Assembly (NCBI RefSeq): GCF_965240435.1
Contig: NZ_CBDEKO010000003.1
Source: Moorena producens
GTDB lineage: Bacteria; Cyanobacteriota; Cyanobacteriia; Cyanobacteriales; Coleofasciculaceae
Reading direction: 5' to 3' (one strand)
DNA: 64,000 nt
Notes under the pieces: model-generated
Database searches by the model: none
Told to the model about the DNA's origin: nothing
What the model saw: the letters and a program-made list of their open reading frames with translations, nothing else
Made by a program: the position numbers and the translations under genes
Shown: positions 22,936 to 30,409 of the stretch, in pieces
Layout of the letters: each line of letters begins with the position of its first letter
Position numbering within the stretch: the stretch's first letter is position 1

Positions 22936-23190
22936 TCAGGTTGACCACCGCCAACATAGGCCCCCTGCAACTGCTTCCAATTCTGAATCAGATAACTCTT
23001 CTTCCTCGTCGCTAGTATTTTCTATATATTCTTTGAGTTCAGTAGCTGTGAAATCATACCCCTTCTCTTTAGCGATTTCGATAACCTTATCAATCGTTTC
23101 ATCTATGCTACCTTGAATCTGCAGTTGCTCTATCAGTGCTGGATCCTGTTGAACCTCTTCAACAAATTGCTCGATTTGGTCACTGGACAT
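22936..23190 (-). CDS. Nif11-type leader peptide RiPP precursor; lanthipeptide (prochlorosin-like) precursor with core LCWRWST
   Basis: 84 aa. The leader [24 protein letters not shown]...[19 protein letters not shown]...[13 protein letters not shown] matches Nif11-family leaders and ends in a double-glycine site. The 7-residue core LCWRWST carries Cys plus Ser/Thr. Confidence 0.75.
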
Positions 23191-23477
23191 ATAAAATGCT
23201 CTCCATGTCGAAGGTTAAGCCACACCATGGTATACAAAGAAACTCTTTGTGTAAACTTGATAAAAATATCTCCGATGAGGGAATAATAAATTGGTATGGC
23301 GCTACGGGCAATGGCATTGGCAACAGGCAAGAGGCAACAGTTTACTAAAAACGCTTTTGCTGCTTTCATCAATGTCCTAACTTTAATGCGTAGTGCTATA
23401 ATAATTATTAGTTTTGATCAAAGCTGGGCAGATTAATGATAGGATGTTTTTTGTAGCCCCTTGAAATCCCGGGTGCT

Positions 23478-24458
23478 TCAATCAGGAGATGAGATTAAGG
23501 GTTGATTCAAGCTTTGAGCTGCCAAAATTTCGTCGATAGACATTACATTAATATCGTAAACCTCACCAAGTTGCTCAAGCAGCAAATCCTCAATAAATTT
23601 CCACTGGTCATCCGGTGTATAGCCACTGATTCTAGAGCGACACAGACAAACTAGTTGTAGCTTAACATTATTGTTTTCTAAAAAGCCAACTAACTCCTTG
23701 ATGCGCTTAACAATTTCAGATTCCGAAACCTTCTTCTGTCCCTGGTAAACATTACTGCTGTAGGGGTTATGCTTGAAAACAAGGTAGTACTTGCCATCTT
23801 CAACTCGGGTTGAAACTCCACTTCCTAATAAAACTCGCAAGTAATGATACCGATCCTGAATAAAAGATTGATATTGTGCTTCGGTAATTTCTATATTTCC
23901 TTGTAGGATTTTGAATTCTTGGTTACAAGAAAAGTAATCCAAATCAATATCTAGAACTACCAATTGATTGTCTGTAAATTCGTCATATACCGTTAAATTA
24001 TGAATCTGAGCGAGTTGATAGTTAGGATCAATCAGCCACTTAAAATAAGTTTTAGCATTGACTTCATTTTTCTGAAACGTTTTTGATATCAAACAGTTAC
24101 CCTCTGAATTAGAGCTATAAATGCAAATTGACTTAGGGGTTGTTGATAAATTTTGATAAGGGTGCTGTAGCCAATAAAATTGCTTAAATAGTCCTTGATA
24201 AATCGCTGGAATTATGAAGTTTTCAATATTCAGTTCATTGTAGGTAAAGTGATATATATCTGTTAGGTTTGTTCTGTCAAGAGCATCAATGGACTTATTT
24301 AAGCGAGGGGATCTAAAGTCCGAATGTTCATCCACATGAAGTAGGATATTATTTGATGCTAGCATTAGCTTTTCCATGACAGCATAATGCCAGATCAAGA
24401 AAGCCTCATTGTGTTCCTCGACAATAAAAACTGGAATCATACTAACTATCTGCTCCAC
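23478..24458 (-). CDS. UPF0489-like protein with arginase/ureohydrolase-like metal-binding motifs
   Basis: 326 aa. Motifs EEHNE (about residue 14-18), HVDEHSD (a D-x-H-x-D pattern like arginase DAHxD), and LDIDLDYFS (a D-x-D pattern like arginase SxDxDxxDP). The spacings between motifs are plausible for the arginase fold. Paralogous to the N-terminus of 24523-26124. Confidence 0.5.
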   Translation of the reverse strand: MEQIVSMIPVFIVEEHNEAFLIWHYAVMEKLMLASNNILLHVDEHSDFRSPRLNKSIDALDRTNLTDIYHFTYNELNIENFIIPAIYQGLFKQFYWLQHPYQNLSTTPKSICIYSSNSEGNCLISKTFQKNEVNAKTYFKWLIDPNYQLAQIHNLTVYDEFTDNQLVVLDIDLDYFSCNQEFKILQGNIEITEAQYQSFIQDRYHYLRVLLGSGVSTRVEDGKYYLVFKHNPYSSNVYQGQKKVSESEIVKRIKELVGFLENNNVKLQLVCLCRSRISGYTPDDQWKFIEDLLLEQLGEVYDINVMSIDEILAAQSLNQPLISSPD

Positions 24459-29200: not shown

Positions 29201-29546
29201 AGGGAAGAGGATTGTCTAGATCAATTGGCAAGTCAGGATAATCCTGAGGCTGAAAGCCTTTAGCGGTTTCCATTACCTGTGCTAGGGTGTTTGCCCACTT
29301 GGGTAGTTGTTCAGCAACTAAACGCACAGTACCTAGGCATGGACGAACTTTGTCTATATCTAATCCATCCCACTGTAAGCGTCGCTGAAACTTGTCCCAG
29401 TTTCCCTGAGCCACCACATTGCACCAGCGCTCAAGTCTTTGTGATACTTGTGCTTCACTGTTGCTATTAAGCTCCGGTACGAATTGCTTGATATCAAGGC
29501 GTTCCCACCAGAAACTAGCTTTAGCAACTATTGATCTACCTAACAA
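26241..29546 (-). CDS. lanM: Class II lanthipeptide synthetase LanM (ProcM-like, CCG zinc-ligand type)
   Basis: 1101 aa. N-terminal LanM dehydratase domain. C-terminal LanC-like cyclase with WCHGAPGIALGRL and HLCCGNFGRIE (CCG rather than CHG, as in ProcM). Confidence 0.85.
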   Translation of the reverse strand: MLGRSIVAKASFWWERLDIKQFVPELNSNSEAQVSQRLERWCNVVAQGNWDKFQRRLQWDGLDIDKVRPCLGTVRLVAEQLPKWANTLAQVMETAKGFQPQDYPDLPIDLDNPLPFEDLLLPVVVVARAKLQERFKDFALPVVGQANALLSKTAYRCLERTLLQQVTTLCAKTLNAEFSKARPGGYRLLNLLLPALQGNGQTTFYDAFVEQHLREGYLTLVENYPVLGRLVATCINLWLEATVELLQRLSWDYEAIDQMFGKTQTPEGEQGTTSLKGLGQVTDIKTGLSDPHNGGRSVFVLTFDSGLKVVYKPKDLGLEVAFNNLLAWCNQHEELLKFKVLRVLNQSGYGWVEYVEHQPCENEAAAQRFYQRAGMLLCWLYALRGIDCHYQNLIASGEHLVLVDLETLLDPEVKLIDNSLDAQEMESTAGQQFYHSVLRTGLLPRWDFSSDRSIAYDISGLGSIESQPSSNKAHKARCWKAINTDHMHLGYDNITRPRSKNVSYLGEQILSPNDYVEQLVEGFEQVYRFVIGQGEAMLAVDGPLAALQDQPIRFIFRSTKVYRTVLQKTLTPEFCQDGVDYSLELDIISRGFLVDQQKPKAWPILAAELQVMAQLDIPYFQGNSASQALPLPTGETIPQAFKQPSYEQVITELQQFSETNLGQQLCLIRQALYARVARKPTGETGAWEVQSLPPLTPDQLIQEADAIAREIQAKAIPDPNGCVNWIGMGFVSKAERFQLQLLGNSLYDGKCGIALFLSALDWVRGRQEFGELALQALQRLRKLTQLADTRQRLARNLGIGGATGVSSIIYTFTKVSQFLGDTALLADAELFVKSITAELIATDQQLDVMGGAAGAILGLLPLYEATQDPDVLEKAQACANHLLQQRVSIKGSPKAWQTLREQPLTGFSHGAAGIAYALLRLYAVTQDHRYREAAEEGIAYERSVFSEKAGNWPDFREFQQDKGQPGFMVSWCHGAPGIALGRLGGLPMLDTADIQQDIEVGLQKTQQFGLQGIDHLCCGNFGRIEVLLIAAEGFSRPDLRQLALQRGTNVVARARRTGSYQLFDNLPSSVWSPGFFQGTAGIGYELLRLASGKLPSVLLWQ

Positions 29547-30409
29547 TTATTATTTCTAATCCTGCCATTAGGCATAATAGTGTTACAGAAAATAGCATCA
29601 TTTAAATCAGCCTTAGCTAATTTAGCCTTTTTAAGATTAGCATGGCTCAAATTAGCCTCACTCAAATCAGCATCATGAAAGTCAACACCTTCTAAATTGG
29701 CATAACTTAGGTTGGCTGCTCTCAAGTTACTATTATAGAGTCTTGCACCACTCAAATTAGCATGACTAAGGTTAGCGCCAGACATTTCCTCATAACCTAG
29801 GTTAATATTTTTCAAGTCCAAACCGCTTAAGTCAGCCTCTGCACAAATAAAGATCGCTCCTGCTTTTGATGGGTTAAATCCAGTGGGAAACTCAGTGCAT
29901 GATGTATAGATAGCTTTGGTAAAATTTATACTACTCAGGTCAGCTTTTTTCCAGCCATCAACCCCTAGCATACGGGCATAACTGAGGTTAGCATTGCTCA
30001 GGTCAGAATCACCTACGTAAACCTCACATAAGGTAGCATAACTAAAATTGGCATCCCTGAGCTTAATACCAGCCATATAAATTACAGATAAATCAGCATA
30101 ACTCAGATCAGTACCACTAAAGTCGCAGTTTTCCAAGGTTGATTCAGATGCTACGAGATGACTCAAATTAGCCTTAGTGAAGTTGGAATTTTCGATAGTA
30201 GTTTCGTATAGATAAGCATTCCTCAAGTTAGCATGACTTAGATCCACATCATCCCAAGTGGCTTCCTCTAAATCAGCATTACTCAAGTCCGCATAATTTA
30301 GACAAACACCCTTGAGGTTAGTACTTTTCAAGTTAGCCTTTTTCAAATTAATACCAGAAAAATCTTTTTCACCGGCTTCGTAGCGTTTTAGGAATTCATC
30401 ACGATTCAT
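29540..30409 (-). CDS. Pentapeptide-repeat protein
   Basis: 289 aa of A(D/N)LSxANLxxA-type pentapeptide repeats. The stop overlaps the LanM start by 7 nt, which suggests translational coupling. Confidence 0.8.
   Translation of the reverse strand: MNRDEFLKRYEAGEKDFSGINLKKANLKSTNLKGVCLNYADLSNADLEEATWDDVDLSHANLRNAYLYETTIENSNFTKANLSHLVASESTLENCDFSGTDLSYADLSVIYMAGIKLRDANFSYATLCEVYVGDSDLSNANLSYARMLGVDGWKKADLSSINFTKAIYTSCTEFPTGFNPSKAGAIFICAEADLSGLDLKNINLGYEEMSGANLSHANLSGARLYNSNLRAANLSYANLEGVDFHDADLSEANLSHANLKKAKLAKADLNDAIFCNTIMPNGRIRNNNC

Follow-up and report, generated by a model that had tools for sequence, protein, structure and literature searches.

What pathway lies between positions 22936 and 30409 of a 64-kb stretch of Moorena producens DNA (contig NZ_CBDEKO010000003.1; the whole stretch of 64,000 nucleotides is called the window here), and how do its enzymes treat their peptide? 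A sequence-only reading of this region had seen a compact and previously undescribed five-gene cluster for a prochlorosin-type class II lanthipeptide with the seven-residue core LCWRWST. The five minus-strand open reading frames (ORFs) on which it was built are all present. However, their combination is not undescribed. The region is very probably the core of the mpp biosynthetic gene cluster (BGC) of M. producens, in a strain other than PAL-8-15-08-1 (hereafter PAL), and would yield a seven-residue, multiply tailored mini-lanthipeptide from a Nif11-leader precursor; the locus is a strain variant of a gene combination that was already known. Furthermore, our analysis suggests that one of the "two arginases" of the published annotation is, judged by its residues, a pseudo-arginase fused to a 2-oxoglutarate (2OG) oxygenase. 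The genes of the region, in their order of transcription, are as follows.

29540..30409, minus strand: pentapeptide-repeat protein of 289 amino acids (aa), a strain-variable upstream neighbour whose stop codon overlaps the LanM start
26241..29546, minus strand: mppM orthologue, class II lanthionine synthetase (dehydratase and cyclase) of 1101 aa, with 97.5% nucleotide identity to PAL
24523..26124, minus strand: 533-aa fusion of UPF0489 and 2OG-FeII_Oxy_3, the other of mppA/mppB (see 23478..24458); identical to WP_424095512.1
25225..26124, minus strand: N-terminal pseudo-arginase domain of the fusion, with arginase fold and both MnB ligands lost
24523..25137, minus strand: C-terminal oxygenase domain (2OG/Fe(II)) of the fusion; its HxD...H triad (GIHRDS, IPHRG) is intact, and RxT (KLRITV) is present
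23478..24458, minus strand: predicted active peptide arginase, one of mppA/mppB; 326-aa UPF0489 protein with matches to NF052474 and OspR and six Mn ligands
22936..23190, minus strand: mppE orthologue, precursor of 84 aa (77-aa Nif11 leader plus core), aligned with PAL MppE; identical to WP_424095506.1

The mpp BGC was reported from M. producens PAL-8-15-08-1 by Saha et al. (Org Lett 2025, PMC11791876) and Wakeel et al. (JACS 2025, PMC12715784), and three of its enzymes have been biochemically characterised, namely MppM and MppI (PMC11791876) and MppC (PMC12715784). The PAL precursor has a Nif11 leader of 77 aa before its core, ACWRWSG, and the cluster further encodes two arginases together with a prenyltransferase, a terpene synthase, an oxygenase and a peptidase (PMC11791876). 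Around the fusion gene of PAL (CP017599; locus L001) we found genes for LanM, the fusion, an arginase, a Nif11 precursor, a 390-aa protein, a flavin adenine dinucleotide (FAD)/squalene-hopene-cyclase (SHC)-like protein, a 354-aa protein, a Trp halogenase, and DUF6445 and DUF7005 proteins. In blastn, this locus is 95.6-97.7% identical to the window at the nucleotide level and collinear with it from mppM past mppI; syntenic in the window are mppM, the two arginase homologues, mppE, mppC, mppD, mppI, the oxygenase gene and the DUF7005 gene, and the comparison at the protein level agrees. The published residues W336 and F340 of MppC were located in the 390-aa PAL ORF, and K73 of MppI in the halogenase. 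Because nucleotide identity, gene order, the positions of the MppC and MppI residues and the published gene content all match, we identify the locus with mpp. The leader is nearly identical to that of PAL, including the L-x4-L motif and the GG site, and the CWRWS segment, K73 of MppI and W336 of MppC are likewise common to both. The precursor (WP_424095506.1), the fusion (WP_424095512.1) and the halogenase of the window are exact matches to RefSeq proteins from another M. producens assembly.

The cluster also proved less compact than five genes. It runs on downstream to about 9.3 kb, and the part from 9.3 to 22.4 kb, outside the coordinates given for the compact cluster, holds the Trp geranyltransferase, the Trp brominase, a second oxygenase, an FAD/terpene-cyclase-like protein, a DUF7005 protein and an NHLP-type ABC exporter. 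We do not claim an operon structure, because promoter and terminator sites between 21 and 31 kb are no more frequent than in shuffled sequence. Among the relatives used for comparison, L012/L013 and L015/L016 are other Moorena loci, L002 comes from metagenome 3300029829, and L004-L007 are from Roseofilum spp. and metagenomes.

The precursor matches Pfam Nif11 (1e-13; 51.8 bits, cut-off 23.8) and TIGR03798 (1.4e-17; 63.7 bits, cut-off 32.3), both above the cut-offs, and so the Nif11 leader proposed earlier is confirmed by profile. The leader carries the L-x4-L motif LSDSEL and ends in EAVAGG, with the GG cleavage site directly before LCWRWST. The LanM scores 430 bits with DUF4135 (PF13575), 209 bits with LANC_like (PF05147) and 987 bits with TIGR03897 (cut-off 304); chance cannot account for profile matches of this strength to the genes of the region. 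Its dehydratase domain is intact (DUF4135 covered over positions 1-376 of 378) and its zinc site, WCHG...HLCCGNFG, has the CCG motif of ProcM, as the sequence-only reading had held. The one ring that this reading drew for a seven-residue core agrees with the work on PAL, where MppM forms a DL-lanthionine between Cys79 and Ser83, i.e., core Cys2 and Ser6 after dehydration of Ser6, to give the ring C-W-R-W-S (PMC11791876). The core LCWRWST was seen in the window only; the three other Moorena loci (PAL, L012 and L015) have ACWRWSG, which differs at positions 1 and 7. LCWRWST is thus an allelic variant of the MppE core and no argument against orthology. The segment CWRWS, which is the ring plus the three tailored residues, is invariant across Moorena cores. 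By analogy with PAL, the ring in the window core is expected between Cys2 and Ser6, since Thr7 is not conserved; Thr7 itself may remain unmodified or become dehydrobutyrine.

In prochlorosin systems, one promiscuous LanM serves many diverse precursors, and no further tailoring follows. The mpp locus resembles these systems in the Nif11 leader with its GG site and in the three-Cys (CCG) zinc site of LanM, but it differs in having one precursor and no fewer than five tailoring enzymes, including arginase, oxygenases, halogenase and prenyltransferase. Therefore, "prochlorosin-type" holds for the leader and the zinc motif and fails for the one-precursor, heavily tailored logic of the pathway. Next to mppM only one Nif11 precursor ORF was found; the remainder of the window was not scanned for more.

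In L002, the region upstream of LanM (positions 1-540) holds a promoter-like element (TTGACA...TAGAAT) in three tandem copies, along with the first seven LanM codons. A perfect palindrome with 13-bp arms, GCTGGTGCTGGCG AA CGCCAGCACCAGC, stands beside one copy of the element, and a degenerate version of it beside another. Translation of this palindrome accounts for the "CWCWR(T/S)" strings listed among the ORFs of L002, which are artefacts, and the "CWCWRT" peptides upstream of LanM were rejected as extra cores for this reason.

The two UPF0489 proteins do not belong to a family of unknown function. UPF0489 (PF12640) proteins are peptide arginases, which convert Arg to ornithine in the cores of RiPPs (peptides made on the ribosome and modified after translation), act as homodimers, and carry the motifs EEH(N/H)EAF, DxHxD and LDIDLDYFSC (PMC12703449); NCBIfam and the match to the arginase OspR agree. 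The Mn ligands of OspR are His12, Asp39, His41, Asp43, Asp165 and Asp167 (PMC10028609). The 326-aa protein, which probably begins at the ATG at 24440 and would then have the 320 aa of its relatives, matches the OspR structure 8BRP at 6.5e-66 (226 bits), has the motifs EEHNEAF, DEHSD and LDIDLDYFSC, and retains all six ligands, H D H D D D. Going by these residues, the 320/326-aa protein probably hydrolyses Arg4 to ornithine (-42 Da, with release of urea). NCBIfam names both UPF0489 proteins "peptide arginase, FlmR/OhkR family" (NF052474), with 288.5 bits for the 326-aa protein and 178.8 bits for the N-domain of the fusion, both below the subfamily cut-off of 350. For the C-domain it gives "FlmC family 2OG-Fe(II) oxygenase" (NF052475), at 65.4 bits against a cut-off of 240. 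We rejected membership in the FlmR and FlmC families on these scores, and unrelated stand-alone PF13640 proteins reach similar FlmC scores.

The N-terminal domain of the fusion also matches OspR 8BRP strongly (4.8e-43). In Moorena, its motifs read FEDHNEAS, DKYSD and LDVVLDYF, and the ligand positions H D Y D D V. A Tyr at the position of His41 and a Val at that of Asp167 were found in all six fusion lineages of our ligand table, and these two are the MnB-specific ligands. In the five fusion lineages outside Moorena, the equivalents of His12, Asp39 and Asp43 are lost as well. None of the six partner arginases, nor either of two outgroup arginases, has lost any ligand of the set H D H D D D. 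In the eight fusion sequences the arginase motifs have all degenerated, with the same Tyr and Val motifs throughout. From this pattern we infer that the 533-aa protein is a pseudo-arginase rather than a second arginase. In a neighbour-joining tree, built without bootstrap, all fusion N-domains group in a single clade whose sister is formed by the partner arginases, and the two branch in mirrored topology, which points to a single old duplication followed by co-inheritance of the fusion and its partner. An intact arginase directly adjoins the fusion at every fusion locus. Relatives of the fusion are only a handful among 5.8 billion proteins, the closest being from M. producens at 97% identity. 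The PAL GenBank record lists a separate 125-aa "prolyl 4-hydroxylase" (P4H-like) fragment, AOX04059.1, where RefSeq has one UPF0489 protein of 530 aa. The published count of two arginases may go back to this split annotation, which makes the fused architecture easy to miss.

The C-terminal domain has the features of the prolyl-4-hydroxylase-like PF13640 family, i.e., the facial triad, the 2OG-binding Arg and a double-stranded beta-helix fold, and its HRD...H...RxT motifs are invariant in all eight fusion sequences. Modelled alone (61 sequences), it reached a predicted local distance difference test score (pLDDT) of 89, and the nearest structures are protein hydroxylases and prolyl hydroxylases. 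The domain is rare, with only two clusters at 50% identity below E = 1e-30 among 1.8 billion representatives; a later search for homologous proteins with the C-domain as query brought no match. Stand-alone homologues of it (P0131, P0132) were considered as a clue to the substrate; they lie in unrelated, non-RiPP contexts and are uninformative. Every core associated with the fusion contains Arg, one in the Moorena CWRWS and four or more in each of the seven others. Other features of cores and loci vary: the Roseofilum cores have no Cys, L005/L006 have no halogenase, the LanM, halogenase and JmjC genes each occur at some fusion loci only, and the prenyltransferase gene was seen at Moorena loci only.

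Arginase action followed by an Fe/2OG ornithine hydroxylase has been shown experimentally for phaeornamide (PhaR/PhaI) and biphenomycin (BipC/BipG). Because of these precedents, and because Arg occurs in every associated core, ornithine is the likeliest target of the fused oxygenase. By analogy with these pathways, the oxygenase could hydroxylate the newly formed ornithine, a proposal that we hold at slightly under an even chance. The dead arginase domain would have no catalytic part of its own; by binding the Nif11 leader, or by pairing with the active arginase as a dimer, it would place the fused prolyl-hydroxylase-like oxygenase on the core; such delivery of the core is a plausible role for the domain. 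The 533-aa protein may then embody an undescribed design of RiPP maturase, in which a dead arginase domain serves as recruiting or docking module and couples the conversion of Arg to ornithine with oxidation of the latter. The pseudo-arginase domain, kept since before the split of Moorena and Roseofilum, would replace a leader-recognition element. We advance this design tentatively, as a possibility that may well turn out wrong.

The pair of arginase and pseudo-arginase-oxygenase is a small mobile module that is also found in lanthionine-free RiPPs of Roseofilum. The Roseofilum cores are rich in Arg and Trp and free of Cys, e.g., GWARRAWRGVSRVW. The lanthionine-free relatives L004-L007 have Nif11-like precursors with Arg/Trp-rich cores, e.g., GWARRSWRRASRGTW and AHTIRRGARRGWRGTTRGARRYFR, and these precursors adjoin the fusion, the arginase, a JmjC/cupin protein, a DUF7005 protein and, in some, a Trp halogenase. 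Export genes for C39-ABC, HlyD, cyclic nucleotide monophosphate (cNMP)-binding and ABC2 proteins are all present in L004/L007 and were partly seen in L005/L006. No paper describing this group was found, in literature searches not aimed at it.

Known systems share single traits with the mpp module. Landornamide (osp, Kamptonema sp. PCC 6506) has a LanM, OspM, and a PF12640 arginase, OspR, acting on one precursor, with Cys N-terminal to its Ser/Thr partner, and OspR has all metal motifs in common with the 326-aa protein. It differs in its NHLP (proteusin) leader, its radical-SAM epimerase and its two rings, and it lacks a halogenase, a prenyltransferase and a fused oxygenase. FlmR/OhkR and FlmC, from the Bacteroidota "DD(I/V)LF" RiPPs (PMC12703449), are the best NCBIfam matches and likewise combine an arginase with a 2OG oxygenase in one cluster, whereas precursor type and phylum differ and the Flm oxygenase is a separate gene. 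In the selidamides (phaeornamide, pha; kamptornamide, ksp) and in biphenomycin (bip), an arginase also acts before ornithine modification, PhaR and then PhaI giving 4-hydroxyornithine, and BipC and then BipG gamma-hydroxyornithine; the pha and ksp clusters hold a LanM as well. In contrast to mpp, their hydroxylases are separate proteins of JmjC/cupin type rather than a PF13640 domain fused to a dead arginase, and these pathways have no Trp bromination or prenylation. Outside RiPPs, the metformin hydrolase MetCa/MetCb (PMC11271267) offers a parallel, as a ureohydrolase-fold protein that has lost its metal ligands is kept as partner of an active paralogue. That system, however, belongs to the catabolism of small molecules, assembles as a heterohexamer and lacks a second, fused catalytic domain, and a physical pairing in mpp is only hypothesised.

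Downstream of the precursor gene, the remaining genes of the cluster and its surroundings are the following.

21319..22446, minus strand: mppC orthologue, ABBA-type prenyltransferase; no Pfam match, orthologue of the 390-aa PAL ORF
18810..20960, plus strand: probable mppD, FAD amine-oxidase domain and squalene-hopene-cyclase-like domain; syntenic in L001, L012 and L015
17755..18825, plus strand: conserved hypothetical protein of 356 aa, no family match; PAL orthologue 97% identical
16172..17506, minus strand: mppI orthologue, SrpI-like flavin-dependent peptidyl brominase; PF04820 at 3.8e-49, catalytic Lys73 conserved
15068..16156, minus strand: DUF6445 protein; PF20043 at 1e-57, 2OG-oxygenase-like motifs IPHFD ... 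LLHSG (HxD...H)
13658..14827, plus strand: DUF7005 protein; PF22541 at 3.4e-164, HECTH (HExxH) motif conserved in five loci
9306..12008, minus strand: NHLP-type bacteriocin export ABC subunit without peptidase domain; TIGR03797 at 1019 bits (cut-off 709), 61% identical to its Roseofilum counterpart

In PAL, MppI brominates the first core Trp (Trp80, i.e., Trp3) at C5 in a leader-dependent reaction that prefers the cyclised peptide (PMC11791876). MppC geranylates the second core Trp (Trp82, i.e., Trp5) at C5, also in a leader-dependent manner, with Phe340 as main leader contact (PMC12715784). In the window MppC, Leu takes the place of PAL Phe340 (window residue 325, KWQASL); Phe340 is present in PAL and L015. 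The earlier suggestion that the Arg and Trp side chains of the core are the targets of tailoring was borne out, as Trp3 is 5-brominated and Trp5 5-geranylated in the orthologues and Arg4 is the predicted arginase target. The FAD/SHC-like protein is probably mppD, the "terpene synthase" of the paper, a name that we have inferred, and the DUF6445 protein is probably the "oxygenase" mppG; further tailoring of the core by these two proteins appears likely. A search of PDB sequences with MppC, DUF6445 and DUF7005 gave no meaningful matches, and the literature held nothing of relevance on 9BLQ.

Between mppD and mppC, at 21097-21306 of the window, lies a GC-rich repeat of some 200 bp in which GCCCCCCTAGCCCCCCAACTTTGGGGGGAA, with its hairpin arms, occurs twice. 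In PAL (L001, 18188-18390), 96 bp of the repeat recur at 93% identity, inside some 200 bp that the two strains do not share and that lie between the 354-aa gene and mppI. The repeat looks like a small mobile element, similar to miniature inverted-repeat transposable elements, whose landing sites differ between the two strains.

How the leader is removed had been left unexplained, since no LanT/C39 protease is encoded nearby. This holds across the whole 64-kb window, where tblastn found no C39-ABC, HlyD or cNMP-binding partner, and the Roseofilum C39-ABC query matched only the peptidase-less ABC gene. Of the NHLP/Nif11 export set (TIGR03796 C39-ABC, TIGR03797 ABC and HlyD; Haft 2010), only TIGR03797 is present in the window. 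In PAL, too, neither of the transporters near mpp has a peptidase/C39 domain (PMC11791876). The DUF7005 protein is probably the "peptidase" of the paper and may be mppP. Its family has 3463 matches in cyanobacteria, with about 60-65% identity across genera and an invariant HECTH...DE motif; its neighbours include an ABC2 exporter gene in Kamptonema and the full cNMP/HlyD/C39-ABC/ABC2 set in Halotia. Going by its motif and neighbours, DUF7005 is a candidate for an uncharacterised metallopeptidase of a generic cyanobacterial NHLP/Nif11 export module. As a leader peptidase specific to mpp it was rejected, for the family is too widespread and stands beside NHLP-type export genes; at best it would be a shared factor of processing or export. 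Cleavage at GG would fall either to a C39 transporter whose gene lies outside the window, for which the GG site is suitable, or to the HExxH protein DUF7005, with the product leaving via the NHLP-type ABC system.

Beside the exporter gene, at 6404-9232 on the plus strand of the window, a 942-aa protein has the CxxxCxxC motif RGCRFC and appears radical-SAM-like by eye. Its internal linker holds about seven tandem copies of the pentapeptide QPTNL (ANLQPTNLQPTNLQPTNL).

At the opposite end of the cluster, the pentapeptide-repeat protein had been counted as a cluster member, but it is not conserved. L015/L016 also carry its gene upstream of LanM, and it is missing from L012/L013, L002-L007 and all non-Moorena relatives. 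Relative to the window, PAL has lost 29600-34494 (4.9 kb), which includes this gene and a vault-protein homologue, with the last ~40 bases of the pentapeptide ORF kept. Since this 3' remnant is left in PAL, the absence is a deletion there, and an insertion of the gene in the window strain was rejected. Within the same lost segment, at 31061-33857 on the plus strand of the window, lies a bacterial counterpart of the eukaryotic major vault protein, with matches to Vault, Vault_2/3/4 and MVP_shoulder (4.4e-69). The gene appears split into an ORF of 630 aa and one of 145 aa (33420-33857), and may be frameshifted.

Could the locus nevertheless be a self-contained, undescribed class II cluster of five genes, in which the pentapeptide protein and two UPF0489 enzymes of unknown function tailor a one-ring heptapeptide? 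The genes are co-directional and closely packed, and the pentapeptide stop overlaps the LanM start also in a second Moorena locus, L015. We nevertheless give this explanation next to no credence: the cluster is published as mpp, the products of mppC and mppI have been shown to act on the mpp core although both genes lie outside the five, the function of UPF0489 is known, and the pentapeptide gene is deleted in PAL and missing from L012/L013 and every non-Moorena relative. Another view takes the cluster to be silent or decaying in the window strain, with no mature product. All mpp ORFs are full length with intact catalytic motifs, however, and the 95-98% identity to PAL with conserved reading frames implies purifying selection; the missing exporter parts may be encoded at other places in the genome (about 9.7 Mb in PAL). 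For these reasons silence or decay seems unlikely to us, even though the mpp product is still cryptic, PAL included (PMC11791876, PMC12715784), C39 peptidase, HlyD and cNMP partner are lacking in the window, Leu replaces the main leader contact of MppC, and the neighbouring vault gene looks disrupted.

With the identity of the cluster so judged, the role of the fusion has to be weighed in the same way, and several points weigh against the role that we propose. The literature searched holds no experiment on either arginase homologue (MppA/MppB) or on the fused oxygenase, and the names mppG and mppP were inferred from the text of the paper without its figure. An AlphaFold2 model of the whole fusion gives pLDDT below 50 for the C-domain, and no domain arrangement can be read from it. 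Four ligands out of six survive in the Moorena fusion (H D. D D.), which leaves a mononuclear site or residual activity possible. The published naming would make both UPF0489 proteins working arginases and the fusion a bifunctional arginase-oxygenase, as the retained equivalents of His12, Asp39, Asp43 and Asp165 and the strong fold match would allow. This is improbable, since His41 has become Tyr and Asp167 Val in all members, three more ligands are lost outside Moorena, and mutation of the DxHxD motif abolishes activity and Mn binding in OspR (about 1% activity and about 1.8% Mn remaining in the triple mutant, PMC10028609). Besides, with a single Arg in the Moorena core and an intact arginase next door, a second arginase would be redundant. 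A stronger challenge concerns the substrate: the oxygenase may act on Trp, on Arg before its hydrolysis or on the geranyl chain, with the dead arginase as leader-binding scaffold only. Trp adjoins Arg in every associated core, so that Trp or Arg itself could be the target; the nearest folds, prolyl hydroxylases, say nothing specific on ornithine; PhaI and BipG are of JmjC/cupin-4 type, not PF13640; and the extra JmjC/cupin protein of Roseofilum-type loci, closer to known ornithine hydroxylases than the fused domain, could be the true ornithine hydroxylase there. On the other hand, the only invariant partnership of the fusion is that with an active arginase, from which it is never separated while halogenase and prenyltransferase genes come and go among loci, and two experimental precedents place ornithine hydroxylation downstream of an arginase. 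We thus regard a target other than ornithine as a serious possibility of roughly one in three, and retain hydroxylation of ornithine as our preferred reading of the fused oxygenase.

As a discovery, the locus is of little value: mpp is in the literature already, and three enzymes from it serve as biocatalysts. New from this analysis are the core LCWRWST and the MppC with Leu for Phe340 of the window strain, and a 533-aa "arginase" that has lost its MnB ligands in every family member and is fused to an oxygenase. The natural core variant and the natural Phe340-to-Leu variant of MppC bear on the substrate tolerance of the pathway. The remaining interest thus lies in the uncharacterised arginase and pseudo-arginase-oxygenase module, and in the natural core variant. 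If ornithine formation is indeed coupled to hydroxylation by this module, it would help to solve the cryptic mpp product, and it would provide a leader-guided tool to install modified ornithine in peptides.

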